Origin: a virus
Lineage: Duplodnaviria; Caudoviricetes
Length of the DNA: 64,000 bases
Reading direction: 5' to 3' (one strand)
IMG/VR virus record: IMGVR_UViG_3300027759_000001
Shown here: positions 5,201-29,502 of the stretch, piece after piece
Layout of the letters: every line of letters starts with the position of its first letter
Numbering within the stretch: the first letter of the stretch is position 1
Position numbers and translations under genes: made by a program
Notes under the pieces: generated by a model
What the model was told of the DNA's origin: nothing
Database searches by the model: none
The model's input: the letters and a program-made list of their open reading frames with translations, nothing else

Positions 5201-8200
5201 ACGGAACAGATGGTACTAATGGAACTTCAGGGACTAACGGTACTGATGGTACGAATGGTACAGATGGTACAGATGGTACAGATGGTACTAGTGGTACAAA
5301 CGGTACGGATGGAACTAATGGTACCGATGGTACTAGCGGTACTAATGGAACAGATGGTACTAATGGTACTAGCGGTACTAATGGAACAGACGGAACTTCA
5401 GGTACTAATGGAACGGATGGTAGTTCAGGTACTAATGGTACAGATGGTAGTTCAGGTACTAATGGGACAAACGGTACAGACGGTACTTCAGGAACTAACG
5501 GTACAGATGGAACGTCAGGAACAAATGGTACAGACGGTTCAAACGGAACGGATGGTACTAGCGGAACAAATGGTACAGATGGAACAAGTGGGATATCTGG
5601 AGTAAATGGTACAAGTGGAACAAATGGTACTAACGGAACATCAGGAACTAACGGAACGGATGGTACTTCAGGAACAAACGGTACGGACGGAACCTCAGGA
5701 ACTAATGGTACAGATGGAACTTCGGGGACTAATGGTACAGACGGTACTTCAGGTACTAATGGAACTGACGGATCTTCAGGGACTAATGGAACAGATGGAA
5801 CATCAGGTACAAACGGAACAAATGGTACAAATGGAACAGATGGTTCAAGCGGAACTAATGGTACGGACGGAACTAATGGTACAAATGGAACAGATGGTTC
5901 AAGCGGAACGAATGGTACTGACGGAACAAATGGTACTGACGGAACCTCAGGTACAAACGGTACGGATGGAACTTCGGGTACTAATGGTACAGATGGTACA
6001 AACGGAACAGATGGTTCAAGCGGAACTAATGGTACGGACGGAACTAATGGTACAGATGGTACTAGCGGTACAAATGGTACTGATGGATCAAACGGTACGG
6101 ATGGAACTTCAGGTACTAATGGAACTGACGGAACAAGTGGTACTAATGGAACTTCGGGGACTAATGGAACAAGTGGTATATCGGGGGTAAATGGAACTTC
6201 AGGAACAAATGGTACTTCAGGTACAAATGGTACCAACGGAACAAATGGTACTTCAGGGACAAATGGTACTAACGGGACTTCAGGTACAAATGGTTCTTCA
6301 GGAACTAGCGGTGTTAATGGTATTTCAGGTGGAGCTGTTTATTTCTTTAACGAATCAGTAACACAAACACCATACAAAGAATTTTCACCTATACCGACAT
6401 CAGGGTCACAACAAACAGTTACGGTTACTATTGCGAATGGTGTAACATCAACTATTCAATCATATTTAACACCCTCAACTTATCCGAATGTATCAACCAT
6501 ACCTGCGGGAATTTGGTCTTTCTTCTTACACGCGTATAAAGAAAATAATAACGCATCTTTTGATATTTTTTGTGAAGTTTATTCAAGAACAACAGGTGGA
6601 ACGGAAACTTTATTATTTTCAACAGACCCAGCACCTGTAACAACAAATTCACCAAATCCATCAATGGTATTATCTGATGGATTTCAAGGAGGATTTTCAA
6701 TCAATACAACAGATAGGATATTAGTTAAAGTTCGAGCTACAAATACCTCAAATCAATCACATACAATTACTTTCGTAACCGAAGGTACAACTCATTATTC
6801 ATATGGTCAAACTACGTTAGGTGTAATTAATGGAACTAGCGGTACGAATGGAACCTCAGGTACAAATGGTACGAGCGGAACTAATGGTACTAACGGAACA
6901 TCAGGTACCAACGGAACATCTGGTACTAATGGTACAAACGGAACTAGCGGTACGAATGGTACATCAGGTACGAATGGTACCAACGGAACTAGCGGTACGA
7001 ATGGGACTTCAGGTACGAATGGAACAAATGGTACTTCAGGGACAAATGGTACTAACGGGACTTCAGGAACAAATGGATCAAGTGGAACTAATGGAACTTC
7101 GGGCACTAATGGAACATCGGGAACAAACGGTACGAATGGAACATCAGGTACGAACGGAACAAATGGAACGTCAGGAACAAATGGTACTTCAGGTACAAAT
7201 GGTACCAACGGAACAAACGGTACTTCAGGAACTAATGGTACGGACGGTACTTCAGGAACGAATGGTACTGATGGAACAAATGGTACTAGTGGAACGAATG
7301 GTACTAGTGGAACGAACGGAACCAATGGAACAAACGGTACTAGCGGAACTAACGGTACAAACGGAACTAACGGTACAAACGGAACTAATGGTACAGACGG
7401 AACTAGCGGTACAAATGGAACTAATGGAACTAATGGAACAAACGGAACTTCGGGAACTAATGGAACATCAGGAACTAATGGAACTAATGGAACTAATGGA
7501 ACGTCGGGAACAAATGGTACGAATGGAACTAGCGGTACTAACGGTACATCGGGTACAAATGGAACTAACGGAACATCAGGTACAAATGGTACTAACGGAA
7601 CATCAGGTACTAACGGAACATCAGGTACAAATGGAACCAACGGAACGTCAGGAACAAATGGAACCAACGGTACTAGCGGAACTAACGGGACTAATGGAAC
7701 ATCAGGAACAAACGGAACATCAGGTACAAATGGTACTAGTGGTGTAAGTGGAGCGTCTGGTACTTCAGGAACAAACGGAACAAATGGTACAAACGGAACC
7801 TCAGGAACTAACGGAACAAATGGAACTTCAGGAACAAATGGCACAAACGGAACCTCAGGAACTAACGGAACAAATGGAACTTCAGGAACTAACGGAACTA
7901 ACGGTACAAATGGAACTTCAGGTACAAATGGAACTTCAGGTACGAATGGGACATCAGGAACCAATGGAACCAACGGTACAAACGGAACCTCAGGAACTAA
8001 CGGTACTAATGGATCAAGCGGTACCAACGGGACATCAGGTACGAATGGAACTAATGGGACATCAGGTACGAATGGAACTAATGGGACATCAGGTACGAAT
8101 GGAACTAATGGGACAAACGGAACGTCAGGGACTAATGGTACCAATGGAACTTCAGGTACTAATGGAACAAACGGAACATCAGGAACAAATGGTACCAACG

Positions 8201-9651
8201 GAACATCAGGAACTAACGGGACTAGCGGTACTAATGGAACTAGCGGAACAAATGGTACATCGGGAACAAATGGTACCAACGGTACATCAGGTACGAATGG
8301 TACCAATGGAACTTCAGGAACCAACGGGACAAATGGTACATCGGGGACAAATGGTACATCGGGAACAAATGGTACCAACGGTACATCAGGTACGAATGGA
8401 ACAAACGGTACAAATGGAACTTCAGGTACTAACGGAACCAATGGCACTAATGGTACAAGTGGAACAAATGGAACGAATGGTACTAATGGAACCTCAGGAA
8501 CAAATGGAACTAACGGGACTAATGGAACTTCAGGAACAAATGGAACCAATGGTACGAGCGGAACTAATGGGACGAATGGTACTTCAGGTACAAATGGTAC
8601 GAATGGTACTTCAGGTACAAATGGTACGAATGGAACAAATGGTTCAAGTGGTACTAACGGTACTAACGGTACTAACGGAACTAATGGAACGAACGGAACC
8701 TCAGGTACTAATGGAACATCGGGAACAAATGGAACAAATGGAACAAATGGAACATCAGGGACTAACGGAACGAATGGGACATCAGGAACCAATGGAACTT
8801 CTGGAACTAACGGTACGAATGGTACTAACGGAACCTCAGGTACCAACGGAACAAATGGTACTTCAGGTACGAACGGAACTAACGGAACATCAGGAACAAA
8901 CGGTACAAATGGTACAAATGGTACAAATGGTACAAACGGAACAAATGGTACTTCGGGAACAAACGGTACTTCAGGAACGAATGGTACTAACGGAACTTCA
9001 GGAACAAATGGTACCAACGGAACAAATGGTACCAACGGAACTAATGGAACCTCAGGGACTAATGGAACTAACGGAACAAATGGTACCAATGGAACCTCAG
9101 GTACTAACGGAACTAACGGAACTAACGGAACAAATGGTACGAGCGGAACTAATGGTACAAACGGAACATCAGGAACAAATGGAACATCAGGAACGAACGG
9201 TACAAGCGGATCATCACCTGTAGTACCAGGATTAGATAATGAAGTATTAACGTCAGACGGTTCGGGTAATATAGTTGCGGAAACTGATTTTACATATAAC
9301 GGTACTGATAATATATTAACACTAACAAGAAGTTACGATAAGGTTAATACTAAAACGGCAACAAATATTTCAACAACAACAACCATTGACTCATTTACAA
9401 CTAACTTTGGATGTTCGGCAATATTTGAATATTGTATAACAAGTACTAGTGGTCGTAAACGTATGGGTCAAGTATTTGCAACTTGGGACAATACAAGTGC
9501 GGTATTTACAGATATTTCATCCCCCGATTTAAATGCATCAACTGCTGCAGTAACTTGGAAAGTAAGTGTAGTATCGGGTAATGTTGAGTTAGTTGCTAAC
9601 ATTAGTGGTGCTACTTGGGACATATTAGTTGCAACAAGAATCATATTCTAA
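2236..9651 (+). CDS. Giant Gly-X-Y repeat fibre protein 1 (2471 aa): three G-T-(N/S/D) segments separated by two globular domains, with N- and C-terminal domains
   Basis: Gly at every third residue over 2395-4905, 5167-6327 and 6832-9216. Non-repetitive domains at about 4906-5157, 6328-6831 and 9217-9651. Fibre role inferred from context. Confidence 0.8.
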   Translation: MPNYQRLTDRVLAPSVSINDILHIVITGDTSQNPAGSSYKATLEQVASVIGSVGTSGTNGTDGTSGTSGVNGTSGTNGSSGANGTSGTNGTSGTSGTSGTSGTNGTNGTNGTNGTNGTSGTSGANGTSGTNGTSGANGTSGTNGTSGTNGTSGTNGTDGSSGTNGTNGTDGTNGTNGTNGTDGTDGTSGTNGSSGTNGTSGTNGSSGTNGTSGISGVNGTSGTNGTSGTNGTDGTSGTNGTDGTSGTNGTDGTSGTNGTDGTSGTNGTDGTNGTNGTDGTSGTNGTDGTNGTNGTDGTSGTNGTDGTSGTNGTDGTNGTDGTSGTNGTDGTSGTNGTDGTSGTNGTDGSSGTNGTDGTSGTNGTDGTSGTNGTDGSSGTNGTDGTSGTNGTDGTSGTNGTDGTSGTNGTSGTNGTNGTSGTNGTSGTNGTNGTNGTNGTSGTNGTSGTNGTSGTNGTNGTSGTNGTNGTSGTNGTSGTNGTSGTNGTDGTSGTNGTDGTSGTNGTDGSSGTNGTDGSSGTNGTDGTSGTNGTDGTSGTNGTDGTSGTNGTNGTDGTNGTDGTSGTNGTDGTNGTDGTSGTNGTDGTSGTNGTDGTSGTNGTNGTDGTSGTNGTDGTSGTNGTNGTDGSSGTNGTDGSSGTNGTDGSSGTNGTSGTDGTDGTSGTNGTDGTSGTNGTDGSSGTNGTDGSSGTNGTDGSSGTNGTDGSSGTNGTDGTSGTNGTNGTDGTSGTNGTDGTNGTNGTDGTNGTDGSSGTNGTDGTSGTNGTDGTSGTNGTDGTSGTNGTDGTSGTNGTDGTSGTNGTDGTNGTDGTSGTNGTDGTSGTNGTNGTNGTDGSSGTNGTDGTSGTNGTDGTNGTDGTSGTNGTDGTSGTNGTDGTSGTNGTDGTSGTSPLICTPFLSGDYYFQSVGSIYNGPSYPNMAWGPGQTLSVYAPEGVIEYMLITGYTASTGAISAVITYCSNVNYKTTSGVNLCLVGEQGTSGTNGTSGTNGTDGTNGTSGTNGTDGTNGTDGTDGTDGTSGTNGTDGTNGTDGTSGTNGTDGTNGTSGTNGTDGTSGTNGTDGSSGTNGTDGSSGTNGTNGTDGTSGTNGTDGTSGTNGTDGSNGTDGTSGTNGTDGTSGISGVNGTSGTNGTNGTSGTNGTDGTSGTNGTDGTSGTNGTDGTSGTNGTDGTSGTNGTDGSSGTNGTDGTSGTNGTNGTNGTDGSSGTNGTDGTNGTNGTDGSSGTNGTDGTNGTDGTSGTNGTDGTSGTNGTDGTNGTDGSSGTNGTDGTNGTDGTSGTNGTDGSNGTDGTSGTNGTDGTSGTNGTSGTNGTSGISGVNGTSGTNGTSGTNGTNGTNGTSGTNGTNGTSGTNGSSGTSGVNGISGGAVYFFNESVTQTPYKEFSPIPTSGSQQTVTVTIANGVTSTIQSYLTPSTYPNVSTIPAGIWSFFLHAYKENNNASFDIFCEVYSRTTGGTETLLFSTDPAPVTTNSPNPSMVLSDGFQGGFSINTTDRILVKVRATNTSNQSHTITFVTEGTTHYSYGQTTLGVINGTSGTNGTSGTNGTSGTNGTNGTSGTNGTSGTNGTNGTSGTNGTSGTNGTNGTSGTNGTSGTNGTNGTSGTNGTNGTSGTNGSSGTNGTSGTNGTSGTNGTNGTSGTNGTNGTSGTNGTSGTNGTNGTNGTSGTNGTDGTSGTNGTDGTNGTSGTNGTSGTNGTNGTNGTSGTNGTNGTNGTNGTNGTDGTSGTNGTNGTNGTNGTSGTNGTSGTNGTNGTNGTSGTNGTNGTSGTNGTSGTNGTNGTSGTNGTNGTSGTNGTSGTNGTNGTSGTNGTNGTSGTNGTNGTSGTNGTSGTNGTSGVSGASGTSGTNGTNGTNGTSGTNGTNGTSGTNGTNGTSGTNGTNGTSGTNGTNGTNGTSGTNGTSGTNGTSGTNGTNGTNGTSGTNGTNGSSGTNGTSGTNGTNGTSGTNGTNGTSGTNGTNGTNGTSGTNGTNGTSGTNGTNGTSGTNGTNGTSGTNGTSGTNGTSGTNGTSGTNGTNGTSGTNGTNGTSGTNGTNGTSGTNGTSGTNGTNGTSGTNGTNGTNGTSGTNGTNGTNGTSGTNGTNGTNGTSGTNGTNGTNGTSGTNGTNGTSGTNGTNGTSGTNGTNGTSGTNGTNGTNGSSGTNGTNGTNGTNGTNGTSGTNGTSGTNGTNGTNGTSGTNGTNGTSGTNGTSGTNGTNGTNGTSGTNGTNGTSGTNGTNGTSGTNGTNGTNGTNGTNGTNGTSGTNGTSGTNGTNGTSGTNGTNGTNGTNGTNGTSGTNGTNGTNGTNGTSGTNGTNGTNGTNGTSGTNGTNGTSGTNGTSGTNGTSGSSPVVPGLDNEVLTSDGSGNIVAETDFTYNGTDNILTLTRSYDKVNTKTATNISTTTTIDSFTTNFGCSAIFEYCITSTSGRKRMGQVFATWDNTSAVFTDISSPDLNASTAAVTWKVSVVSGNVELVANISGATWDILVATRIIF
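2395..9216 (+). repeat. 9-nt-period coding repeat (Gly-Thr-Asn/Ser/Asp) in three blocks of 279, 129 and 265 triplets
   Basis: Block lengths of 2511, 1161 and 2385 nt are exact multiples of 9; synonymous codons are scrambled between units. Confidence 0.9.
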
Positions 9652-9767: not shown

Positions 9768-12700
9768 ATGGCAAATGAATTCATAGCCCGTAATGGGGTC
9801 AAATCATTAGGTGGTGTTACATTTCCATATACTGGAGTGAGCACCACATACACAATTAATTCGGATAATTATCTAATTGATTGTACTAGCGGGACATTTA
9901 ATGTCACCCTTCCAACTTCTGCAGGTATTGCAGGACAAATCTTTGTAATTAAAAATAGTGGATCAGGAACAATAACTCTTGCAACAACAGGAGGTCAAAC
10001 TATAGATGGAAGTTCAACAAAAACATTAACACAATATGGATCAATAACCGTACAAAGTGACGGTTCAAATTGGGATATTGCGGGATCTGACGGAACGTCA
10101 GGAACTAACGGCACTAGCGGAACATCAGGAACAAATGGTACCAACGGTACTAATGGAACATCAGGTACAAATGGAACTAACGGTTCAAGTGGAACTAACG
10201 GTACAAATGGGACATCGGGAACCAATGGAACTAACGGTACAAACGGTACTTCAGGAACAAATGGTACAAATGGAACAAACGGAACGTCAGGTACAAACGG
10301 TACTAGCGGAACGAATGGTACTAACGGAACAAATGGTACGAGTGGAACTAACGGAACTAATGGTACATCAGGTACAAATGGTACTTCAGGAACTAATGGG
10401 ACTAACGGAACTTCAGGAACTAATGGTACTTCAGGAACTAACGGTACGAATGGAACTAATGGGACTTCAGGTACGAATGGTACTAATGGAACATCAGGGA
10501 CTAACGGAACAAATGGAACTTCAGGTACTAATGGAACTAATGGTACTAATGGAACTTCAGGTACTAATGGAACTAATGGTACTAATGGAACGTCGGGTAC
10601 TAATGGAACCAACGGAACATCGGGAACCAATGGGACTAACGGTACAAATGGAACATCAGGTACAAATGGAACATCAGGTACAAATGGAACTAACGGATCT
10701 TCAGGAACCAATGGAACTAATGGTACAAACGGAACTAGCGGTACGAATGGAACTTCAGGAACAAATGGAACATCAGGAACTAACGGCACAAATGGTACTA
10801 ATGGATCATCAGGAACTAATGGAACGTCAGGAACAAATGGAACCAACGGTACAAATGGTACTTCAGGAACTAACGGAACAAATGGTACAAATGGAACTTC
10901 AGGGACTAACGGAACTTCAGGAACTAATGGTACCAACGGAACATCGGGTACTAATGGAACTAATGGTACTAACGGAACAAATGGAACATCGGGTACTAAC
11001 GGGACTAATGGTACAAACGGAACTTCAGGAACTAACGGAACAAATGGTACGAGTGGGACCAATGGAACTAACGGTACTTCAGGAACTAACGGAACAAATG
11101 GTACGAGTGGGACCAATGGAACAAATGGTACTTCAGGAACTAATGGTACGAGCGGGACTAATGGAACAAATGGAACATCAGGTACTAACGGTACAAACGG
11201 TACTTCAGGAACGAATGGAACTTCAGGTACTAATGGAACTAATGGTACAAACGGAACATCAGGAACCAACGGTACAAATGGTACCAACGGAACTAGCGGA
11301 ACAAATGGAACTAACGGAACTAACGGAACATCAGGTACTAATGGAACTAATGGAACATCAGGAACAAATGGTACCAACGGAACTAGCGGAACAAATGGGT
11401 CTTCAGGTACGAATGGTACCAACGGAACTAGCGGTACAAATGGAACAAATGGAACTAACGGTACAAATGGCACGAGTGGGACCAATGGAACAAACGGTAC
11501 TTCAGGTACAAATGGAACTAATGGTACAAATGGAACAAATGGTACGAGCGGGACTAATGGAACTTCAGGTACAAACGGAACATCAGGAACGAATGGAACT
11601 AATGGAACTAATGGAACTTCAGGTACAAACGGAACCTCAGGAACGAATGGAACTAATGGAACTTCAGGTACTAACGGAACCTCAGGAACAAATGGTACGA
11701 ATGGATCATCAGGTACAAACGGAACGAATGGAACATCAGGAACAAATGGTACCAACGGAACTAGCGGAACAAACGGTACTTCAGGAACAAACGGTACTTC
11801 AGGAACGAATGGTACCAACGGAACTAGCGGTACTAATGGAACAAGCGGCACAAATGGAACGAATGGTACAAATGGAACCAACGGAACATCAGGTACCAAC
11901 GGAACTAATGGTACAAACGGAACTAGCGGACTTTCTGGTGTTGATGGTACTGATGGAACATCAGGAACAAACGGAACTAGCGGAACTAATGGTACCTCAG
12001 GAACAAGAGGAACTAGCGGAACAAATGGTACAAATGGTACCAACGGAACTAGCGGAACAAATGGTACCAACGGAACAAATGGTACTAATGGAACTTCGGG
12101 AACAAATGGCACAAATGGTACTTCAGGAACAAATGGTACTAACGGAACCTCAGGTACTAATGGGACTTCAGGAACTAATGGAACAAATGGCACATCAGGA
12201 ACAAATGGTACTAACGGAACTTCAGGTACAAATGGAACATCTGGGACAAACGGTACAAATGGTACTAACGGAACATCAGGAACGAATGGTACAAATGGAA
12301 CTTCAGGAACGAATGGTACAAACGGAACTAATGGAACAAATGGAACGAATGGAACCTCAGGTACGAATGGTACTTCAGGAACGAATGGAACTAACGGTAC
12401 TAATGGAACTAGCGGTACAAATGGTACGAACGGAACTAGCGGTACAAATGGTACTTCGGGAACAAATGGAACAAACGGAACTTCAGGTACAAATGGTACT
12501 AACGGAACTTCAGGTACAAATGGAACATCTGGGACAAACGGTACAAATGGTACTAACGGAACATCAGGAACAAATGGTACAAATGGAACTTCAGGAACGA
12601 ATGGTACAAACGGAACTAGCGGGACTAATGGAACTTCAGGAACGAATGGTACAAACGGAACTAATGGAACAAATGGAACGAATGGAACCTCAGGTACTAA

Positions 12701-15700
12701 CGGAACGAACGGAACATCAGGAACTAATGGAACCAATGGTACAAATGGAACAAATGGCTCAAGTGGTACAAACGGAACTTCAGGTACTAACGGAACATCG
12801 GGTACAAACGGAACTAACGGCACTTCAGGTACTAATGGAACTAGCGGTACTAACGGAACAAATGGAACTTCAGGAACAAATGGTACTAACGGAACGAATG
12901 GTACGAGCGGGACCAATGGTACATCAGGGACAAACGGAACGAATGGAACTAATGGCACTAGCGGTACAAATGGAACAAATGGTACTAACGGGACAAATGG
13001 TTCAAGTGGAACTAATGGAACTTCGGGCACTAACGGAACAAACGGTACTAGCGGAACGAATGGTACTAGCGGAACGAATGGAACAAATGGAACGTCAGGA
13101 ACTAATGGTACGAACGGAACAAATGGTACATCAGGTACTAATGGAACTAGCGGAACGAATGGTACAAATGGAACTAGCGGTACCAACGGGACTAATGGTA
13201 CAAACGGAACTTCAGGTACCAACGGAACTAATGGTACTAGCGGAACTAATGGTACTAACGGAACATCGGGAACGAATGGGACAAATGGAACTTCAGGTAC
13301 AAACGGAACATCAGGGACTAATGGAACAAATGGAACTAGCGGTACGAATGGAACCAATGGTACAAATGGTACTTCAGGAACTAATGGTACTAATGGAACG
13401 AACGGAACCAATGGTACGTCAGGGACAAATGGAACTTCAGGCACAAACGGGACTAACGGATCATCAGGGACCAATGGAACGAATGGTACAAGCGGTACTA
13501 ACGGAACTAGTGGGACAAACGGAACAAATGGTTCAAGTGGTACCAACGGTACTAATGGTACTAGCGGTACGAATGGAACTAGCGGTACAAACGGAACATC
13601 GGGAACGAATGGTACTAACGGTACAAATGGTACTTCAGGGACAAACGGAACAAATGGTACTAGTGGAACTAATGGAACCAACGGTACTAGCGGAACAAAC
13701 GGAACTAGCGGAACAAACGGAACCTCAGGAACAAATGGAACAAATGGTACTAGCGGAACTAATGGAACGTCAGGAACTAACGGAACAAATGGTTCAAGTG
13801 GAACCAACGGTACGAATGGTACTTCAGGTACAAATGGAACTAGCGGCACAAATGGAACTAACGGAACTAGCGGTACTAATGGTACTTCAGGAACAAATGG
13901 CACAAACGGAACTAATGGAACAAATGGTTCAAGTGGTACCAACGGTACAAATGGAACATCCGGAACTAATGGTACTTCAGGGACAAACGGAACAAACGGT
14001 ACGAATGGTACTAACGGAACAAGTGGAACTAACGGAACAAGTGGGACGAATGGTACTAATGGAACATCAGGAACCAACGGAACTTCTGGAACTAATGGAA
14101 CAAATGGTACTAGTGGAACTAACGGTACTAATGGTTCAAGTGGAACGAATGGTACTAATGGAACTTCAGGTACTAACGGTACTAATGGAACATCAGGAAC
14201 AAACGGAACTTCGGGAACCAATGGAACAAACGGTACATCAGGTACTAACGGAACAAGTGGGACGAATGGTACTAATGGAACTAGCGGAACGAATGGAACA
14301 TCAGGTACGAATGGTACAAACGGAACTTCGGGTACAAACGGAACATCGGGTACGAATGGAACGTCAGGAACGAACGGAACCAATGGCACATCGGGAACTA
14401 ATGGTACTAATGGTACATCAGGGACGAATGGAACAAATGGTACTAACGGAACTAGCGGAACAAACGGAACTAGCGGAACGAATGGTACGAACGGATCTTC
14501 AGGCACTAATGGTACATCGGGGACAAATGGAACCAACGGTACAAATGGAACTAATGGAACCAACGGGACTTCAGGCACAAATGGGACTAGCGGAACGAAT
14601 GGAACTAACGGAACGTCAGGTACAAATGGAACAAACGGAACTAATGGTACTAACGGTACAAGTGGTACAAATGGAACCTCAGGTACAAATGGAACAAACG
14701 GAACTAATGGTACTAACGGTACAAGTGGTACAAATGGGACTTCAGGTACAAACGGTACGAATGGTACTAACGGAACATCAGGTACAAACGGTACTAATGG
14801 TACTAGCGGTACGAATGGAACTAACGGCACATCAGGGACTAACGGAACTTCAGGTACGAATGGAACAAATGGTACGAGCGGGACCAATGGAACTAACGGA
14901 ACTTCAGGTACGAATGGAACATCAGGAACTAACGGAACTAGCGGAACGAATGGTACAAATGGAACTAGCGGAACAAATGGAACATCAGGTACAAATGGTA
15001 CCTCAGGAACAAGAGGAACTAGCGGAACAAATGGTACAAACGGAACCAATGGTACGAGCGGAACAAATGGAACTAATGGAACATCAGGAACTAACGGAAC
15101 ATCCGGTACGAATGGAACAAATGGTTCAAGCGGAACTAACGGAACTAACGGATCATCAGGTACAAACGGAACTTCGGGAACCAATGGTACAAACGGTACA
15201 TCAGGAACTAATGGAACTTCAGGTACAAATGGAACTAACGGTACTAATGGTACGTCAGGTACAAATGGAACCAATGGTACATCAGGTACTAACGGAACTT
15301 CAGGTACTAATGGAACTAATGGTACTAATGGAACAAACGGTACTTCAGGAACAAATGGAACGAATGGTACTAACGGAACTAGTGGAACAAATGGTACTAA
15401 CGGAACAAACGGTACGAATGGGACTTCAGGAACTAACGGCACAAGCGGGACAAATGGTACTAACGGTACAAGCGGGACAAATGGAACGTCAGGAACTAAT
15501 GGTACGAACGGAACAAATGGTACATCAGGTACTAATGGAACTAGCGGAACGAATGGTACAAATGGATCTTCAGGAACAAATGGAACAAATGGATCTTCAG
15601 GAACAAATGGAACAAATGGAACAAATGGATCTTCAGGAACAAATGGAACAAATGGATCTTCAGGTACGAACGGCACATCAGGAACTAATGGTACAAATGG

Positions 15701-16700
15701 TACTTCAGGAACAAATGGTACTTCAGGAACAAATGGTACGAGCGGGACCAATGGAACAAATGGAACCAATGGAACCAATGGAACATCAGGTACTAATGGC
15801 ACTTCAGGTACCAACGGTACAAATGGTACCAACGGAACTAGCGGCACAAATGGTACTAATGGATCATCAGGTACTAACGGAACTTCAGGGACAAATGGCA
15901 CTAACGGAACATCAGGAACCAACGGTACAAATGGAACTTCAGGTACAAATGGCACTAATGGTACTAGCGGAACAAACGGTACAAATGGATCATCAGGTAC
16001 GAATGGAACTTCAGGTGTTAGTGGAGCGTCAGGTACTTCAGGTACTAATGGTACAAATGGATCATCAGGAACTAACGGAACATCGGGTACTAATGGAACA
16101 GGATTTAATTCAATATCACCAACAACAGATAATAATGTGTTAACTGCTAATGGAACCGCAAATTCAGCGAACTCAGAACCAAACTTAACATTCAATGCTT
16201 CAACAAACTTATTAACAGTAACGGGTAATGAAACTGTTAGTGGTATTTTAACTAGTCAATCTTCGGGATCATTAGTTGCAAATGGTAAATGGTCTTTAAT
16301 GGGTAACCCTACAACTTTGTTAACCTCAAATAGTTATTATGGTGAAGTCGTAACATTTGGGGGGGCAGGTGCAACCACCCAATTTTATATGTATTATTGG
16401 TCTAGTGGAAGTACGTGGGAACTTACTGACGCCAACGCGGCGGCAACATCAAGGGGGTTAATATCAATGGCAATAGATACTAGTTTCAGTGGAGGGATGA
16501 TGTTAAGAGGATATGTATATAATTCAACATGGAACTGGACACCAGGAGCAACATTATATTTAAGTGCCTCTGGCGCTGCCGGGGTTATAACATCAACACA
16601 ACCTTCAGGTAGTGCGGATATTGTAAGAGTTGTTGGATATGCCATTAGTGCCGATTTAATTTACTTTAATCCTTCGCAAGATTGGATTGAGTTAGCATAA
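9768..16700 (+). CDS. Giant Gly-X-Y repeat fibre protein 2 (2310 aa): tail-fibre-type N-terminal domain, one uninterrupted G-T-(N/S) segment, DUF2190/cement-like C-terminal domain
   Basis: N-terminus [10 protein letters not shown]...TLP...IKNSG...IDG...SDGSNW is typical of phage fibre proteins. Repeat spans 10083-16094. C-terminus ...GATLYLS...[27 protein letters not shown]. Confidence 0.8.
10083..16094 (+). repeat. 9-nt-period coding repeat, 668 Gly-X-Y triplets (mostly GTN, GTS, GSS)
   Basis: 6012 nt equals 668 x 9; no globular interruption in the translation. Confidence 0.9.
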
Positions 16701-16711
16701 TACTTATAGTA

Positions 16712-17551
16712 ATGGCAATAATAACTAAATTAAATGACGTTTTATGTGTTAACATTTCAAAAATTGATAATGTTTTAAAAAGTAATGCGAAATTTTTTGA
16801 TGATAATACTTTTTGCCCAACACCAACACCTACACCAACAACTCCAGTTGGGACACCAACACCAACACCTACAAGAACATTAACTCCAACACCAACATTA
16901 ACAAGAACATTAACTCCAACACCAACAAATACACCTACATTAACTCAGACATTAACTCCAACACCAACAAATACACCTACATTAACTCAGACATTAACTC
17001 CAACTCCAACAAATACACCAACATTAACTCAGACATTAACTCCAACTCCAACAAATACACCAACATTAACAAGAACATTAACTCCAACTCCAACAAATAC
17101 ACCTACATTAACAAGAACATTAACACCAACGCCAACAAATACTCCTACATTAACAAGAACATTAACTCCAACACCAACAAATACTCCTACATTATCACAA
17201 ACATTAACTCCAACTCCAACAAATACGCCAACACCAACACAAAGATTAAGTTCAACGCCAACACCAACACCAACTCCAACTCTAACACCAACTACACCAT
17301 GTGGTAAAGATTGTTGTTATATAGAACTTTGTTATAGTACAATTGACTGTACGGACGCTTGTCAATGTAATCAAACTGTTAATGTATACCTATCTATTTG
17401 TAAATATACCGCATGTAGATTATCAAACGCATTTGGAATATTTGTAGATGACTCATGTACAACACCTGCGGCAGATGGTTACTATTCTAATACTGTTGAT
17501 TGTTATTATTGGGATGGGTCTTCCTCTTTAACATATCAAGGTCCTTGTTAA
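16712..17551 (+). CDS. Mucin-like protein: short N-terminal domain, Thr/Pro repeat, 12-Cys C-terminal domain
   Basis: Translation shows about 8 copies of TPTLT(R/Q)TLTPTPTN followed by a Cys-rich end. Confidence 0.75.
16817..17299 (+). repeat. 42-nt tandem repeat encoding a 14-aa Thr/Pro unit (about 8 copies plus degenerate flanks)
   Basis: Unit close to acacctacattaactcagacattaactccaacaccaacaaat. Confidence 0.85.
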
Positions 17552-17556: not shown

Positions 17557-17581
17557 AACCCCCACTTTAAAGGTGAGGGTT
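17557..17581 (-). terminator. Intrinsic terminator between convergent genes
   Basis: Imperfect stem aacccccactt/aggtgagggtt; the A-run at 17553-17558 gives a U-tract on the minus strand. Confidence 0.55.
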
Positions 17582-17586: not shown

Positions 17587-20500
17587 TTATTTTCTGTTAT
17601 CTATATAGAGGATTACTTCACTGTAGTACTCAATAAAATGGTCATTCCACAGATCCCATTTAATATTAACTCCATCCACAGAGAAAACTTGTATGTTATC
17701 AAACTGAGTTAAGATATTATCTCTAAAGTTTCTAAATTCTACTTTATGTTCTGGTGTTCTTAAATGCCATTCACCAACAATTTTTTTAACATTTTTTTTA
17801 ATGAAATCTAAATTTTCGGGTTTAAACATTTCGTATTCACCACCCTCACAATCTGTTTTAACAAAATCAATTCTATTTAATCCGTAAAGTTTAATAAACT
17901 TATCAAATGTAATAGACTCCATATGTGTTTCACCTCCAAATAATTGGTCGTGTTCAATCACACCATTAAAATTTGAAAGTCCTTTATTAATGTGAGTTAC
18001 AGGATGACCCAATGTATTTCTAATTAATGTTGTGAATTCACTTTCACTTGGTTCAATACAAAATACGTGTTTTGGTTTTTTATGTAGGATTGAATATGTA
18101 AAAGGACCAACACTTGATCCAATATCTAAAACGATATCCCCTTCTTCTACTTCAAAGAATTGTTCGTATAATCTCTGTTCAAATATTTCATTATACATTG
18201 CGTGTTTGTGATAATTACCATTATCGTCACCATTATTCATCCATCCCCAATCAAACTTAGGTAATGGATTACTATTGAGTAATTTATTGATTTCACCAAT
18301 AACGACTTCCGAAGTAATTTCTTTTGTACATTCAAACATCCGATCCGTATTCTTATGTAGTGGACACCAATTCCAATCACCGGCATCTAATCTATCTGAG
18401 TTAAAACATCCGTGACAAACACTTTCATTAATAACTCTATATGTATCTAATGTTGTTTCCGCCCATTTTTCACTAAATCCTGAAATCAAAACGACAGGTA
18501 ATTTACAAGCCCAAGCCAACCAAGATAATCCTGATCCGAGACCAATAAAGAACTCACATTCGGATAGGTCGTCAATTACTTCTTGTAAGTTACCTCCTTT
18601 AAAAATGGTTACACCTTTAGGGTAATGGTTATTCATGTATCCGTCACCTTCTTTAGAGTAGATCATACATTCATAACCTAAAGTATTAAGGTGGTCAACA
18701 ACTGCTTGCCATCCGTCAGGGTTGTTCCAATATTTTGATTGTGCGGTTGAGTGAAACCCAATACCAACTTTTTTCTTTTTAGGTGTGTTAGGTAATTTTA
18801 ATAGTGGTCTAACTTCTTCATAATCTAAACCTAAGATATCCGTTGCCGTTTTTTGTAATGGCATTTTCTTAAAATCAAATGGGTGTTTGTTATTATCGTA
18901 AACCCCTTCACTTGTATAATGCCAACCTAACCTATATTGTGCGTGTATATTAGTTACCAATTCACCAGGTTCAACAAACTCAATATCAGGGTATTGATCT
19001 TTAAATAAACTATTAAGGAAGGTTGATACTATAAGTTGGCAACCATGTTTTTTTCTAAATACCTCACAATAAGGAACCCAAGCCATTGTGTCACCTAATG
19101 ATTTTGATCCAAAAGAAATATATACTCTCTTATCTTTTAGATCTAATGTCTCATCATAAATTACTTCACCATTTTCTTCTACGGTTGTTCTCCATTTAAT
19201 AAAGTATTCTTTATTTAATTTAACCCAACTATTGATTGGTAATTCATTTTGATATGATATTTCATTTTTATCATCATAATATTTAATATTCAATTTGTTT
19301 TCTGTTGTCCCTTGTACTTCAAAATAAGGTTGGGTAACATAATGTCTAACAAAAGTATAATCTTTGGTTAATGGTTTGTTTTGGGTAATGTTAAGATTTG
19401 TAACTGCGTTATAAAAATTCAATAAATCTTCACCAAATGTATTATCGGGTAATATTTTATAAACATCTTTATTTTCAATAAGTTCAACCAATTGTTTTGA
19501 TATGGTTTTAACATCACCTTCTATTGGTGTTATATATCCATTAAACATACCCATGTATTGTGGTAAATCTCTTGTAAGGATTTTCATTCCATAATTGATA
19601 GATTCTCTAACAACCAACGGATTACATTCCCAAGTTGAGTTAAACATTAATACATCACAAGCCATCATGAATTTTTCAACGTCATTACGCTCACCCCATA
19701 CTTTTACGTTTGATGGTAAATTATTCATTATTGGACCCCAATAGTCTTCAAAGTTTGGAGCTTGGTTCCCAATAAAATGAAATTGGATGTCAGGGTTTGA
19801 TTCAATTAATTCTCTTGCAACCTCAACCCCTTCACCTTGATTTTTACCACTTGTCCATAACCCAACATTAAGTACGTGAGTTTTAAACATATCCAAACCA
19901 AGTTCTTCTCTTACTACAGTTTTTTTAATTAATGGGACTTGATTAAAATCACCATATATTTCATACTCCTCTAAAATTTTAGTTACCTTATTCTCAATTG
20001 GGTATAACGATAAAAACTTCATTGGTGTTTCATTTAAAAACGTTTCCTTTAAATGATAAGGGGTGACAAAACAATATGATTCAGGATTGAACTTTTTATG
20101 TGTTTGCGGGTTAAACCAAACATTATGACAAGTCTCAACCATTTTCCAAGTCCTATCATTTGAATAAAGTTGATTTAACAATGGTAGTGGGATTTTATTA
20201 AAACTTTCAAATCCTTCTAACATTTCTTCCGAATGAACAATATCAATATTATTGTTTTTAATAATATCAATTAACTCATATTTTCTTTTTGTGTCAGTTG
20301 TATCACCTAAACTAAAAAAATGACCTTCACCCAATAGATCAATTATTTTATCTCTTTGAACAACATATGTATTACTAAACTGAGAAAACTCAACCAAAAA
20401 TATTTCAATTTGGTCTTTGAATTTTTGAAGTTCTTGAATTCTTTTTAATACGAATTGAGGCATTCCACCTGTTGATAGGTGCGGTGTAAGGTACAATAAT

Positions 20501-21246
20501 TTAATTTTTTTATTCATTTCTTTGTTGTGATTTTTTTTTATTATTTCTTTAGATTTTAATAAATTATATTTTCTTTTTTCATCATCTTCACCCGAAAATA
20601 TTCCTTTATTATGTATTCGGTATATACCTCCAGGAAAATTTAAATACTTTATTTTTCCATAACAAGATATACGGTAGTTAATCCCCCAATCAAGATATGG
20701 TAATTCATACATCCACGGTTCAAATAAATTTTCTATTTTTTTAAAAACTTTACCAAAACCAACATAATTTTTTTCTAAAAGATTATCAGTAGTGACACAA
20801 TCTTTAATATCTAATGAAATTCCCCTCCACTCATCTATTTTAGGTGGTTCTATATGATTTTTATGTTTTAACCATTTTTCTCTATGTCCACAAAACACCA
20901 TGGTAGTATCAATATTATTATCTAAATAATCAACACTTTTTTGTAGAAGATCCATATTATCCCAATAGTCATCACCATCCAATATCGCAATATATTCACC
21001 CTTAGCTTTTGAGTATAAAAATTCAAAATTTTTGGTGGGACCTAAATTTTTATCAGGTTCAAAAAATTTAATCTTTTTATTTAGTTCGGCAATTCTCCTT
21101 ATATGTTGCATGCTTTTATCTGAGGAAAAATCATCTCTAACTAAAATCTCATAATCAAAATTTGTTTTTTGACCTAACGCAGAGATTAAAGCCTGTTCTA
21201 TATATTCCTCAAACATATATGAAACTATAATAACACTAACTTTCAT
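17587..21246 (-). CDS. Four-domain glycosylation enzyme: GT2 + GT4-like + Aah/TibC-like protein O-heptosyltransferase + FkbM-like methyltransferase
   Basis: GT2: VSVIIVSY...DD.S.D...YIAILDGDDYW. GT4: GG...VGLWTSGKNQ...GERNDV...CDVLMFNSTWECNPLVVRES. Aah/TibC: SKSLGDTMAW...FIGLGSGLSWLAWA...CHGC...WCP...FECTKEI. FkbM: VLDIGSSVG...IEP...KTDCEGGE. Confidence 0.8.
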   Translation of the reverse strand: MKVSVIIVSYMFEEYIEQALISALGQKTNFDYEILVRDDFSSDKSMQHIRRIAELNKKIKFFEPDKNLGPTKNFEFLYSKAKGEYIAILDGDDYWDNMDLLQKSVDYLDNNIDTTMVFCGHREKWLKHKNHIEPPKIDEWRGISLDIKDCVTTDNLLEKNYVGFGKVFKKIENLFEPWMYELPYLDWGINYRISCYGKIKYLNFPGGIYRIHNKGIFSGEDDEKRKYNLLKSKEIIKKNHNKEMNKKIKLLYLTPHLSTGGMPQFVLKRIQELQKFKDQIEIFLVEFSQFSNTYVVQRDKIIDLLGEGHFFSLGDTTDTKRKYELIDIIKNNNIDIVHSEEMLEGFESFNKIPLPLLNQLYSNDRTWKMVETCHNVWFNPQTHKKFNPESYCFVTPYHLKETFLNETPMKFLSLYPIENKVTKILEEYEIYGDFNQVPLIKKTVVREELGLDMFKTHVLNVGLWTSGKNQGEGVEVARELIESNPDIQFHFIGNQAPNFEDYWGPIMNNLPSNVKVWGERNDVEKFMMACDVLMFNSTWECNPLVVRESINYGMKILTRDLPQYMGMFNGYITPIEGDVKTISKQLVELIENKDVYKILPDNTFGEDLLNFYNAVTNLNITQNKPLTKDYTFVRHYVTQPYFEVQGTTENKLNIKYYDDKNEISYQNELPINSWVKLNKEYFIKWRTTVEENGEVIYDETLDLKDKRVYISFGSKSLGDTMAWVPYCEVFRKKHGCQLIVSTFLNSLFKDQYPDIEFVEPGELVTNIHAQYRLGWHYTSEGVYDNNKHPFDFKKMPLQKTATDILGLDYEEVRPLLKLPNTPKKKKVGIGFHSTAQSKYWNNPDGWQAVVDHLNTLGYECMIYSKEGDGYMNNHYPKGVTIFKGGNLQEVIDDLSECEFFIGLGSGLSWLAWACKLPVVLISGFSEKWAETTLDTYRVINESVCHGCFNSDRLDAGDWNWCPLHKNTDRMFECTKEITSEVVIGEINKLLNSNPLPKFDWGWMNNGDDNGNYHKHAMYNEIFEQRLYEQFFEVEEGDIVLDIGSSVGPFTYSILHKKPKHVFCIEPSESEFTTLIRNTLGHPVTHINKGLSNFNGVIEHDQLFGGETHMESITFDKFIKLYGLNRIDFVKTDCEGGEYEMFKPENLDFIKKNVKKIVGEWHLRTPEHKVEFRNFRDNILTQFDNIQVFSVDGVNIKWDLWNDHFIEYYSEVILYIDNRK

Positions 21247-22192
21247 TTAATAATTTTATTTCTATAACATTGTGTATGATATTTTTTATTTTTTCTGTTA
21301 TATCCGATGATATTCCATCATAAGATATTACCACATTTTTTATATTGTATGGTTTAAACCCTAAATTAACAATATCCCTATTGGATATATCATAAGAGGT
21401 CTCAACACCATCTACGTTAATTAAAACATTTATTTTTTCTTTGTTATTGTAAAAATATAAACAAACCTCATCATTGTGTACGACATCTTTAACTATAAAA
21501 AAAACTAAACCATTAATGTCGGAGTAGTCAAATAAATTATCGTCTTTATGGAATAATATTAAATCCTCAATTTTTTCTAATTCAATTTTATAATCCATAT
21601 TACTCGTAATTAAAGTATCGTAAAGCCAGTTCTCAACTATACAATTAAATTTAAGGTAACTATCAAAAGTGATCAGATTTGAAAATTTCAATAGGTTTTC
21701 TCTATCTAACGCAATTAAATGTAAACTAACTTTGTGTTCGTGAAATGGATAAAAGTTACATTTTTTATCTGATAAAAAAGTAGAAACCACCGTATTATCA
21801 ATTTCCGTATCATATATAATATGATAATATCTGTCATAGTCATAAGTTAAAGCATATTCAGATAATTTTTTGGTTTGGTAAAGTGCCGCCCACCCATAAT
21901 CAATTAAGGCTCTTTTAATTACAATTTCTTTACCTTTATCCGTATTTTTTACCCATGACATAACAGATTTTTGGGGCCAATAAAGTAATGGATTTTCTTT
22001 TGTTTGTACATAAAAATCACACATATTTATCACATCGGAAGGTAAAGGTAAAGGACTATTTACCATTACATCTAAATTGTGACTTTTAATGGTTTTGATG
22101 GTATTTATCAGAATGTCAATTTTTTCTTTGGTATCACAATAAGAACTTATTAAAACTATCCTCTTATCTTGTAAATTATTTATATTTTCCAT
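21236..22192 (-). CDS. Hypothetical protein, possibly glycosyltransferase-like
   Basis: 318-aa ORF overlapping the start of the GT polyprotein by 11 nt; no family recognised with confidence. Confidence 0.5.
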   Translation of the reverse strand: MENINNLQDKRIVLISSYCDTKEKIDILINTIKTIKSHNLDVMVNSPLPLPSDVINMCDFYVQTKENPLLYWPQKSVMSWVKNTDKGKEIVIKRALIDYGWAALYQTKKLSEYALTYDYDRYYHIIYDTEIDNTVVSTFLSDKKCNFYPFHEHKVSLHLIALDRENLLKFSNLITFDSYLKFNCIVENWLYDTLITSNMDYKIELEKIEDLILFHKDDNLFDYSDINGLVFFIVKDVVHNDEVCLYFYNNKEKINVLINVDGVETSYDISNRDIVNLGFKPYNIKNVVISYDGISSDITEKIKNIIHNVIEIKLLNES

Positions 22193-23541: not shown

Positions 23542-24468
23542 ATGAAAAAAGTATGTTTAGATGTATTAGGATGTAGAGCGTTAGGTGATACTTTAGCAGT
23601 AACACCAACTTTAAGAAAACTTTATAATTCTTACGGTAAAAAAATATCTGTTGCGACTCATCACCCTTATCTATTTTTAGATAACCCATATGTTGATAAC
23701 ATCTATACCGATGTAACCGATGAAATAAAAGAAACTCACGAAGTATTCGTATCGTTTAATATTGGTTATCATCCAAATGGTATTTGTTATAAACATAACG
23801 CAATGGACATTAGACAATTCCATGCGATTAATCTTGGTTTTATGTTATCCAAAGATGAGATGGAAATGGATTACATTCCAAAACCAATTGACACAATAGA
23901 AGGTTTACCTGAAAAATATGTTTTAATTCATCCCGTGCAAAATTGGGACTCAAGAACTTGGGATGCAAAGAAATGGCAAATGTTAACCAAACTATTAAAC
24001 GAAAGAGGTATTGCCGTTGTGTCTATTGGTAAAGATTCGTCTGAACTTGGTGGATCTAATGTGGATAAACCTGTATTCAATTTCAAAATTGATTTAGGAT
24101 TAAACTTAATGAATAATACAGATATGGATCAGGCTTGGTACCTCATCCAAAATAGTATGTGTTTTATTACAATGGATTCAGGACTATTACATTTGGCGGG
24201 AACAACCGACGCAGAGATAATTCAATTAGGTAGTTCAATTAATCCTGAGTTTAGATCACCATATAGAAAAGGTTCACAAGAATATAAATATCATTACGTG
24301 GTTGGTGGTTGTGGTTTGAATTGCGCTTCCGACATGAGGTATGGTGTTAGAGAATGGCAATCAATACAAGGTATACCATCACTAGTTAATTGTTTGGAAA
24401 GAAAAGAAACCTTTGAGTGTCACCCAACAATTTTTGCGGTTTATAATAAAGTGTTAGAAATAGTTTAG
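23542..24468 (+). CDS. GT9-like (ADP-heptose transferase fold) glycosyltransferase
   Basis: LGDTLAVTP, YVLIHP...SRTW...W, FITMDSGLLHLAG, C-terminal Cys cluster. Confidence 0.75.
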   Translation: MKKVCLDVLGCRALGDTLAVTPTLRKLYNSYGKKISVATHHPYLFLDNPYVDNIYTDVTDEIKETHEVFVSFNIGYHPNGICYKHNAMDIRQFHAINLGFMLSKDEMEMDYIPKPIDTIEGLPEKYVLIHPVQNWDSRTWDAKKWQMLTKLLNERGIAVVSIGKDSSELGGSNVDKPVFNFKIDLGLNLMNNTDMDQAWYLIQNSMCFITMDSGLLHLAGTTDAEIIQLGSSINPEFRSPYRKGSQEYKYHYVVGGCGLNCASDMRYGVREWQSIQGIPSLVNCLERKETFECHPTIFAVYNKVLEIV

Positions 24469-27336: not shown

Positions 27337-29502
27337 ATGCCAAATCAAATAACATTAACGGTATCAACTGGAACACCACCATATAATATTTATGTGTGTG
27401 ATATAACAAATACGTATTGTTATTTTGCAACAACTTTTGTTGGTGGAACAATAACCTTTGATTCTCCGGCACCATTAGAATATACAACACCAATTTTAAT
27501 AAAAATAATTGATTCACGTAATTGTGAATCATTCCAATATTACCAATGTGTCCCTACTCCAACACCAACATTGACACCAACATTAACACCAACCCCAACT
27601 GGTCCTTGTACTTGTTGTTGTCTTGCGGTTAGTTGTAATAATGGTAGTGGAGGATCTTTCACTTATACCGATTGTTTTGGAAACGTTATAGGTAATGTTT
27701 TGGTTGCTGGTAATTCTATTGTGTATTATTGTGGTAGTAATGTTACTAATTTAAATAACGTTGCGGTTAATTATGGATCACCTTGTGTTAGTGGAACTTG
27801 TATATTACCTGTTCCAACTGCAACTCTTACACCAACTCAAACACCAACTCCCACTAACACTCAGACTTTAACGCCAACACCTACATTAACACAAACTGTA
27901 ACACAAACATTAACGCCAACTCAAACACCAACACCTACTAACACTCAGACTTTAACTCCAACACCTACATTAACACAAACGTTAACTCAAACTAATACTC
28001 AAACATTAACTCCAACACCAACTAATACTCAGACGTTAACACAAACATTAACACCAACTAATACTCAGCCTTTAACTCAAACACCTACATTAACACCTAC
28101 ATTAACACAAACAGTTACAAGAACTTTAACCCCAACACCTACATTAACAAAAACATTAACACAAACTGTAACACAAACTTTAACACCAACCCCAACTAAT
28201 ACTCAGACGTTAACGCAAACTTTAACTCCAACACCTACATTAACACCTACATTAACTCAAACTAACACTCAAACATTAACGCCAACTTTAACTCCAACAC
28301 CTACTAACACTCAGACTTTAACTCCAACTCCAACTAATACTCAAACTGTAACTCCAACTAACACACAAACTTTAACTCCAACTCCAACTAATACTCAGAC
28401 GTTAACGCAAACTTTAACTCCAACACCTACATTAACACCTACATTAACACAAACTAATACACAAACTTTAACGCCAACTCCAACTAACACACAAACATTA
28501 ACACAAACAGTTACGAAAACTTTAACTCCAACACCTACATTAACACAAACTAATACTCAAACTTTAACTCCAACTCCAACTAATACTCAGACGTTAACGC
28601 AAACTTTAACTCCAACACCTACATTAACACAAACAGTTACGGGAACTTTAACTCCAACACCTACTAACACTCAAACTTTAACGCAAACTGTAACACCAAC
28701 TTTAACTCCAACACCTACATTAACACAAACAGTTACAAGAACTTTAACCCCAACACCTACATTAACTCAAACTTTAACGCAAACTGTAACACCTACATTA
28801 ACACAAACGTTAACTCAAACTAATACTCAAACATTAACTCCAACTCCAACTAACACACAAACATTAACTCAAACTGTAACACAAACTTTAACTCCAACTC
28901 CAACTAATACTCAAACTCCAACTCCAACTAATACTCAAACTGTAACCCCAACTCAAACATTAACGCAAACAGTTACGGGAACTTTAACACCAACTCCAAC
29001 TAATACTCAGACATTAACTCAAACATTAACACAAACAGTTACGAAAACTTTAACTCCAACACCGACATTAACACAAACTGTAACACAAACTTTAACTCCA
29101 ACTCCAACTAATACTCAGACGTTAACACAAACGGTTACGAGAACTGTAACTCCAACACAGACGTTAACACAAACAGTTACAAAAACTTTAACTCCAACTC
29201 CTACACCAACTCAAACTTTAACACAAACATTAACACAAACAGTTACAAAAACTTTAACTCCAACACCTACATTAACTCAAACTTTAACACAAACATTAAC
29301 ACAAACAGTTACGAAAACTTTAACTCCAACACCTACATTAACTCAAACATTAACACAAACAGTTACGAAAACTTTAACTCCAACACCTACATTAACTCAA
29401 ACTGTAACACCAACTCTAACTAGAACCGTAACACCAACTTTAACTACAACACCAACTAAAACTCCAACACCTACATTAACAAAAACTAAACCTCTTCCAT
29501 AA
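27337..29502 (+). CDS. Cys-rich domain B and a second Cys-rich domain, followed by an approximately 555-aa (Thr-X)n mucin-like tail
   Basis: Thr at almost every second residue from 27817 to about 29487; ends KPLP* with no C-terminal domain. Confidence 0.75.
27817..29487 (+). repeat. 6-nt-period (ACN-NNN) Thr-X repeat built from reshuffled [14 protein letters not shown] blocks
   Basis: Visible directly in DNA and translation. Confidence 0.85.

Follow-up and report, generated by a model that had tools for sequence, protein, structure and literature searches.

So far, TibC of enterotoxigenic Escherichia coli (ETEC) H10407 and Aah of E. coli 2787 have been known solely for modifying autotransporter adhesins of the E. 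coli type, in connection with virulence. Both are 400-aa (amino acid) stand-alone enzymes encoded beside a hyper-repetitive Gly/Ser/Thr/Asn-rich protein with hundreds of serines; TibC modifies Ser, not Thr, in such repeats and also acts on short synthetic peptides. The stretch of DNA analyzed here (the window; 64,000 nucleotides (nt) of the IMG/VR virus record IMGVR_UViG_3300027759_000001, Duplodnaviria, Caudoviricetes) contains a gene, P0001 (17587-21246, minus strand, stop codon 17587-17589), whose single intact open reading frame (ORF) of 1219 aa joins, from the N-terminus, a GT2 and a GT4 glycosyltransferase (GT) domain, a TibC/Aah-type (BAHT) module and an FkbM-family methyltransferase domain. 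Like TibC and Aah, the module has the barrel, the GT-B core, the thumb and the iron finger, and it retains the catalytic Asp, the four Cys residues and the Thr, Lys and Trp that contact the donor. It differs in residing within a four-enzyme chain and in a phage rather than a bacterium, in having collagen-like Gly-X-Y proteins as neighbors in place of an AIDA repeat or autotransporter, in the replacement of Arg286 by Val and of Pro300 (Ser in Aah) by Gly, and in falling on a tree branch separate from three classical plasmid enzymes. In the best reading of the locus, to which we assign a probability of about 0.65, a cytoplasmic P0001 decorates the phage's own collagen-like fibres before or during virion assembly.

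Other viruses provide partial parallels. PBCV-1 A064R and the three-GT A111/114R are virus-encoded, cytoplasmic multi-domain enzymes, and the two GT domains and the methyltransferase of A064R, a fusion that an earlier sequence-only reading of this DNA had cited correctly, build and methylate the glycan end on the virus's own structural protein (PMC9614988, PMC7826918). The resemblance of P0001 to A064R is limited to architecture and logic: the GT families differ, no chlorovirus protein appears among the 50 PDB fold matches listed, and the chlorovirus glycan is N-linked on the capsid protein of a eukaryotic virus. In addition, A064R extends but does not start its glycan, whereas the P0001 chain includes a candidate initiating protein O-transferase. 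Mimivirus also combines collagen-like Gly-X-Y proteins (L71 and others) with a glycosylating enzyme, L230 (PMC9614988). L230 is a PLOD-type lysyl hydroxylase and glucosyltransferase that acts on hydroxylysine, in contrast to the direct Ser/Thr O-glycosylation that would apply to fibres with almost no Lys or Pro. P0001 has no visible relationship to A064R or to L230. Mycobacteriophages reportedly glycosylate their own virion proteins as well (Freeman et al. 2023, cited in PMC12582341). Actinobacteriophages reportedly use individual GT genes of one domain each for this, with capsid and tail-tube proteins as targets, and neither a TibC-type enzyme nor a collagen-like acceptor is known to be involved.

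The sole cultured-phage relative found is encoded by Microcystis phage Mel-JY01 (PP395634, CDS 4750-8430), a 1226-aa protein that includes a GT4 domain and, at its C-terminus, a TibC-type domain 48% identical to that of P0001. Its annotation reads 'methyltransferase FkbM' and does not mention the TibC-type domain; no FkbM domain was found in it by Pfam at E <= 0.001. The Mel-JY01 protein differs from P0001 in that the BAHT domain comes last, and the 17 kb inspected contain no gene annotated as collagen-like. The literature search yielded no paper on TibC-type enzymes in phages and none on phage collagen-like proteins with a heptosyltransferase. Virion O-glycosylation of this kind is not described in the literature searched, and P0001 adds a four-domain form with its fusion history, two very long fibres, and a family-wide loss of Arg286 set against phage ADP-heptose genes.

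The TibC/Aah-type module

P0001 residues 655-988 match the NCBIfam model TIGR04414 (hepto_Aah_TibC) over almost its whole length (E 6e-86, 288.7 bits against a cut-off of 200), and the same domain obtains 18.7 bits on the model of lipopolysaccharide (LPS) heptosyltransferase I (TIGR02193). The sequence-only reading had placed the domain in the Aah/TibC type while allowing that LPS heptosyltransferases might match better; the profile search bears out the first and turns down the second. At the sequence level, aa 672-991 match TibC residues 61-388 (PDB 4RAP/4RB4) with E 2e-72.

A full-length AlphaFold2 model was built on 79 relatives (mean predicted local distance difference test score, pLDDT, of 80; predicted template modeling score, pTM, of 0.54), and the inter-domain arrangement was not interpreted. 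Domain parsing by AlphaFold, proposed earlier as a check, resolves the GT4 domain (aa 247-617, pLDDT about 92), the TibC-type barrel and catalytic core with thumb and finger (aa 630-990, about 94) and the FkbM domain (aa 1000-1185, about 85). The GT2 domain (aa 1-245) is poorly modeled (pLDDT 25-65) because few relatives carry it and the alignment is thin. TibC is the top Foldseek match (E 3e-38, target-normalised TM score 0.81-0.84 over ~380 columns, with TibC chains of 381-390 residues). The next matches (E about 1e-11) are the GT4 enzymes BshA, MshA, WaaG and PimB', which align to the second domain of P0001.

An N-terminal flattened β-barrel on the GT-B core is a BAHT feature, formed in TibC by residues 1-97 (PMC4358343). 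It is present in P0001 (aa 630-712, 19111-19359, minus strand), where the model places strands at 631-712 with pLDDT about 94, and precedes the catalytic domain (aa 713-990, 18277-19110, minus strand). The TibC catalytic base Asp110 corresponds to Asp719, within the motif SLGDTMAW, and is invariant in 157 of 157 relatives. The contacts to the β-phosphate (TibC Thr226 and Lys230, here Thr834 and Lys838) and to heptose O4 (TibC Trp305, here Trp909) are also kept, and the Asp, Lys and Trp, and likewise Thr226, are invariant or nearly so among the 157. The hydrophobic thumb tip, Phe265-Val266 in TibC, is Tyr870-Met871 in P0001, which are the majority residues among relatives; TibC Phe368 is retained as Phe971.

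The iron finger (aa 944-973, 18328-18417, minus strand) carries Cys944, Cys947, Cys961 and Cys973, which align with the TibC iron ligands Cys339, Cys342, Cys358 and Cys370, are kept in 151 of the 157 relatives, and are candidate iron ligands. The motifs CHGC, WCP and FEC quoted in the sequence-only reading are these same residues (Cys944/947, Cys961 and Cys973). Its further statement that heptose is transferred through the four-Cys site does not hold, as the iron site of TibC is ~20 Å away from the active site and has its role in dimerisation and in binding the substrate (PMC4358343). TibC forms a ring dodecamer, and its interface residues, in the thumb and the iron finger, are kept in P0001.

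Two positions depart from TibC. Arg286 is Val890, which leaves the four-residue ADP-heptose-binding set (Thr226, Lys230, Arg286, Trp305) incomplete; in TibC this Arg makes a hydrogen bond to adenine N1, and the Ala mutant abolishes or strongly reduces activity (Yao et al., PMC4358343). Gly904 occupies the position (Pro300/Ser294) at which D,D-heptose is distinguished from L,D-heptose; Pro300 of TibC selects D,D-heptose, and Aah has Ser there (PMC4358343). Both its homology and its structure place the domain in the TibC/Aah family. Because the Arg286 contact and an autotransporter partner, two defining features of the functional BAHT family, were both looked for and neither was found, with no autotransporter or AIDA repeat beside P0001 among the window neighbors scanned, the module is classed as a distinct phage-associated variant and not as an "autotransporter heptosyltransferase".

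Collagen-like fibres as candidate acceptors

At lower window coordinates lie the genes of two megafibres. Megafibre 1 (2471 aa; 2236-9651, plus strand) contains 676 Gly-X-Y triplets in which Thr occupies X and Asn, Ser or Asp occupies Y, and its C-terminal part matches tail-fibre families. Megafibre 2 (2310 aa; 9768-16700, plus strand) contains 669 uninterrupted triplets with 250 Ser, 642 Thr and 436 Asn. The Pfam Collagen model gives about 894 bits on each. Both thus comprise ~670 triplets, with X = Thr in 94%, ~250 Ser, ~630 Thr, almost no Lys and no Pro. Nearly all Ser residues precede Gly, giving about 220 Ser-Gly sites per fibre. If fully triple-helical, each fibre would be about 580 nm long.

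The pairing of enzyme and fibre genes recurs in other phages. Relatives of the TibC-type domain are encoded on 317 IMG/VR contigs, of which 80 were fetched with 10-kb flanks. Of these 80 viral loci, 50 have a collagen-like G-T-[N/S] ORF within 10 kb. When duplicates are removed and at least 5 kb of sequence is required on each side, 22 of 25 loci have one, often at a distance of 9-100 bp, and the adjacency holds down to 51% BAHT identity and in every architecture, including stand-alone copies of 380 aa. In 13 loci the contig ends within 1.5 kb past the BAHT gene, as expected if assemblies break in the long repeat that follows it. A 99%-complete relative of 291,867 bp, read as a whole genome, has exactly one collagen-like gene, located 1.9 kb from the BAHT gene. 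The collagen-like fibres are the best candidate acceptor because of this recurrent adjacency, the action of TibC on Ser in Gly/Ser/Thr/Asn-rich repeats, and the abundance of Ser-Gly sites in each fibre.

A different protein target is conceivable. The Thr-Pro mucin-like proteins encoded at 16712-17551 and 27337-29502, another virion protein or a host protein could be modified instead, with the fibre adjacency reflecting a shared structural or late module. The first of these genes (plus strand, convergent with the fusion gene) encodes a 279-aa protein of Thr-Pro/Leu-Thr repeats with a Cys-rich C-terminus and sits between the fibres and P0001, 35 nt from the fusion stop; the island also holds other repeat and lectin-domain proteins. 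Such an explanation is nevertheless very unlikely, since TibC modifies Ser and the 279-aa protein has only 13 of them, TP-type ORFs occur in 13 of 81 loci whereas collagen-like ORFs occur in 51, and a GT60-like gene directly follows the large Thr-X protein and would be its more natural partner. The 279-aa protein may serve as a second acceptor, less conserved as a neighbor.

These results divide two earlier claims. The sequence-only reading had named the neighboring Ser/Thr repeats as acceptor; the neighborhood across dozens of divergent phages does tie the enzyme to adjacent repeats, but the conserved neighbor is the proline-free collagen-like (Gly-Thr-Asn/Ser)n chain and not the mucin-type TP repeat. 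Likewise, of the Ser and Thr proposed as modified residues, Ser agrees with what was shown for TibC and Thr does not.

Two further observations concern the repeats. In two lake metagenomes, contigs on the Thr-Pro gene show many different internal skips at 16840-17290 with very high summed depth; either the number of repeats varies, or similar repeats of many organisms may be matching one another. The two fibres have 342 and 436 N-G-T/S sequons, which take in almost all of their Asn residues. These residues may undergo N-glycosylation, or deamidation at Asn-Gly; no GT41-type N-glycosyltransferase turned up among the genes scanned in the window.

Domain organization and integrity of the fusion protein

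The open frame and the Pfam and NCBIfam matches agree with the single four-domain ORF, and the domain positions, given by the sequence-only reading. The GT2 domain (GT-A fold, 20512-21246, minus strand) matches PF00535 over aa 4-130 (74.5 bits, cut-off 23.3) and has the DXD motif LDGDD at residues 88-92 (D90-D92). The GT4 domain (GT-B fold, retaining type, 19396-20508, minus strand) matches PF13692 and, over aa 446-597, PF00534 (36.7 bits, cut-off 26.4), with the EX7E motif at E540-E548. Within the TibC-type module, aa 822-921 match the GT9 family PF01075 (25.3 bits, cut-off 22). The FkbM-family S-adenosylmethionine (SAM) methyltransferase domain (aa 1000-1219, 17590-18249, minus strand) matches PF05050 over aa 1099-1176 (37.7 bits, cut-off 22.7) and TIGR01444 (40.6 bits, cut-off 37.7), and SAM motif I reads VLDIGSSVG in its translation. 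The catalytic motifs are therefore intact in all four domains.

A frameshift or an assembly fusion as the origin of P0001 was rejected. The exact protein is present on 6 contigs, the longest of 291,788 bp; separate ENA assemblies encode near-identical 1219-aa proteins (97-99% identity in the TibC-type domain); and overlapping contigs from another lake study span 17698-22159 without a gap, with no indel listed inside the ORF and those listed confined to the intergenic spacer. Since identical or near-identical proteins recur in separate assemblies and the contigs of the other study are gap-free, the fusion is not an assembly artefact.

Six nt past the fusion stop a terminator-like hairpin, recognized by consensus match, has a 9-bp stem followed by a T run (17557-17581, minus strand). 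A promoter scan gave fewer sites than shuffled sequence, and none is claimed. RNA-library contigs from two freshwater studies lie on the fusion gene; as DNA carry-over is possible and the strand is not shown, expression is not claimed.

The domains around the BAHT core vary among relatives. The 80 loci comprise GT4-BAHT-FkbM (47), BAHT alone (18), GT4-BAHT (14) and BAHT-FkbM (4) architectures, so that GT4-BAHT-FkbM is the common core and the 1219-aa form with an N-terminal GT2 domain is rare. In a representative protein library, relatives form 766 clusters at E <= 1e-30; of the best 150 clusters, 120 have proteins of at least 600 aa. A Pfam census of 50 of these found GT4 in 18, FkbM in 16, other methyltransferases in about 10, and GT2 in two or three.

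A gene-fusion argument with two parts suggests that the GT2 domain acts in the same pathway as the other modules: Met244 of P0001, near which this domain ends, aligns with the start Met of the common 975-aa relatives (MxKIKLLYLTPHLSTGG), and at two loci (L057 and L058) a GT2 homologue of 38.6% identity is a separate, overlapping upstream ORF.

More unusual arrangements were also seen. Some metagenomic proteins (P0138, P0146, P0149, P0152 and P0262) contain two or three TibC-type domains in tandem. One member of alignment A2 has a BAHT domain fused to a PLOD-type collagen glycosyltransferase domain (PF25342, E 5e-45), and in another the TibC-type domain is fused to a SET domain. Versions of 1497-1535 aa in close relatives (L002 7871-12361 and L043 7187-11767) have long extra N- or C-terminal regions with no family match, or weakly GT25, which suggests further unrecognised glycan-modifying modules.

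A phage branch lacking Arg286, and the likely sugar donor

The Arg286 substitution is not peculiar to P0001. In each of the 50 unique phage copies this position is taken by Val, Leu, Ile, Thr or Ala, so the nucleotide or the sugar could differ, and 46 of the 50 have Gly at position 300. Three classical plasmid-borne enzymes, one of which adjoins an AIDA-repeat gene, keep the Arg. In a FastTree phylogeny rooted on P0135, a separate heptosyltransferase-like protein of the window, all but one of the 50 phage copies group in a branch of 118 tips in which Arg286 is wholly absent, and the three plasmid enzymes fall outside it. The loss marks a distinct subfamily and leaves room for a changed donor.

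The sequence-only reading had named ADP-heptose as the donor of Aah and TibC. In favor of this donor, complete relatives of 343-373 kb with the same Val/Gly signature as P0001 encode GmhA (238.7 bits on NF001628) together with proteins resembling the HldE kinase (301 bits) and the HldE adenylyltransferase (107 bits), which points to ADP-heptose. In the complete 373-kb relative (G003:C1) the HldE-kinase-like, GmhA and HldE-adenylyltransferase-like genes are scattered over the genome (L110 39139-40074, L082 118794-119264 and L083 317253-317645); judged by these matches they represent three of the four steps to ADP-heptose. GmhB was not found in five relatives, which says little because of possible gaps in the records or divergence of the enzyme. 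No GmhA was found in G002 and G015, the closest of the near-complete relatives. The P0001 phage would, as part of the best reading, draw ADP-heptose from its host.

The same findings allow that the fibres are the target of other chemistry, the phage-branch module using another sugar or nucleotide, in which case the family name would mislead. The uniform replacement of Arg286 throughout the phage copies and their branch while the plasmid enzymes keep it, the prevalence of Gly for Pro300, and the missing GmhA all speak for such a change. It is nonetheless unlikely: Thr226, Lys230 and Trp305 are invariant or nearly so, relatives with the identical signature encode the GmhA and HldE-like functions, and the Arg286 hydrogen bond was called weak by the TibC authors (PMC4358343). 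ADP-heptose is accordingly a likely donor; it is not certain, because the Arg286 contact is lost to Val in P0001.

Genomic setting

The window carries genes for a tail sheath, a family-B DNA polymerase and a helicase, which identifies it as phage DNA. The source of P0001 is an uncultured freshwater jumbo phage with a genome of about 292 kb, and 31-mers of the fusion gene were found in freshwater and lake metagenomes from more than ten studies. No close cultured relative was found through the replication genes of the window, and DNA searches of a phage collection yielded no more than short FkbM matches.

P0134 (318 aa; 21236-22192, minus strand) lies upstream of the fusion gene and has a stop that overlaps the fusion start by 11 nt. 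Its 204 homologues are apparently all from phages or metagenomes, and none has a Pfam domain. With weak similarity to GT25/WavE clusters in the Atlas, P0134 may be a further unrecognised glycosyltransferase. P0135 (308 aa; 23542-24468, plus strand) is a separate GT9 heptosyltransferase-like gene, and a GT9 gene also adjoins the fusion gene in one relative (L001). Its Cys-rich C-terminus (GGCGLNC...NCLERKETFEC) resembles an iron finger. On the same side of P0001 also lie genes for lectin-domain proteins and an operon of GT60-like, GT92-like, FkbM and GT34-like genes. A gene at 38347-39438 (plus strand) encodes an LCIB/LCIC-type β-carbonic-anhydrase domain (PF18599, E 2e-27). The LCIB/LCIC family is known from the CO2-concentrating mechanisms of algae, and this phage gene may be a clue to a phototrophic host.

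A rival explanation is host-surface remodeling, in which the fusion and the neighboring GT9, GT60-like, GT92-like and FkbM genes would build or alter the host LPS or capsular glycan, for example against superinfection, and no phage protein would be glycosylated. Pathways for O-antigen and LPS core typically employ GT2, GT4, GT9 and FkbM domains, P0135 scores nearly equally on TIGR04414 (38.3 bits) and LPS heptosyltransferase II (35.9 bits), and GT clusters of jumbo cyanophages have been read as modifying capsule or LPS against superinfection (PMC7824862). The central domain of P0001, by contrast, is of the protein-modifying TibC/Aah type by the wide gap in profile scores given above, and the barrel, thumb and iron finger, which are inserted in or added to the catalytic domain, are not described in WaaC by the TibC authors (PMC4358343). 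Surface remodeling also leaves the tight, recurrent adjacency to collagen-like genes unexplained, and no flippase, polymerase or lipid-carrier transferase family turned up among the window neighbors scanned. Remodeling of the host surface is thus quite unlikely.

Proposed mechanism

The domain identities, the catalytic residues, the fold and the conserved fibre neighborhood are observed. We infer the donor, the acceptor residue, the order of action, the oligomeric state and the biological role in the scheme of fibre glycosylation that follows. P0001 would be soluble and cytoplasmic; inspection of the sequence by eye, not by a predictor, revealed neither a signal peptide nor a membrane segment. 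The TibC/Aah-type module would transfer heptose, most likely from ADP-glycero-manno-heptose of the host pool, to serines within the Gly-Thr-Ser triplets, with other hydroxyls as possible further sites. Further sugars would be added by the retaining GT4 and inverting GT2 domains, and O-methylation of a sugar by the FkbM domain would cap the chain, with possible contributions from the separate GT9 protein P0135 and perhaps from P0134. The outcome would be two fibres with hundreds of short methylated glycans each. These glycans could stabilise a helix that lacks Pro and hydroxyproline, shield it from proteases and shape adsorption.

Several findings weigh against fibre glycosylation as set out here. 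Of the 25 loci with full flanks, three lack a collagen-like gene within 10 kb. The iron finger of TibC tracks a right-handed β-helix, according to its authors (PMC4358343), and a collagen-like chain is a very different acceptor. To these must be added the poor model of the GT2 domain, the Val and Gly residues at positions 286 and 300 in P0001 and their counterparts throughout the phage copies, and the lack of a detected GmhA in the two closest near-complete relatives.

In animals, hydroxyproline stabilises the collagen helix. A wider proposal, held tentatively and at somewhat less than even odds, is that the large, mostly phage-borne branch without Arg286 has specialised in the hyper-glycosylation of Ser in collagen-like triple helices that contain no proline, that dense, methyl-capped heptose glycans there replace the helix-stabilising role of hydroxyproline, and that related freshwater jumbo phages diversify the glycan by swapping GT2, GT4, FkbM and other modules around the BAHT core.

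Significance

Enzymes of the TibC/Aah type are found here in hundreds of freshwater phage contigs, usually fused to other glycan enzymes and located beside collagen-like fibres. For the phage proteins, the automatic name "autotransporter strand-loop-strand O-heptosyltransferase" is misleading as to the acceptor. E. coli already makes ADP-heptose; if the proposed function is correct, one soluble protein able to initiate, elongate and cap a glycan on a peptide of simple repeats would be useful for glyco-engineering in that organism. It would also mean that phages make heavily glycosylated collagen-like fibres with their own enzymes, which would bear on the resistance of these fibres to degradation, on host recognition, and on the stability of a triple helix without proline.

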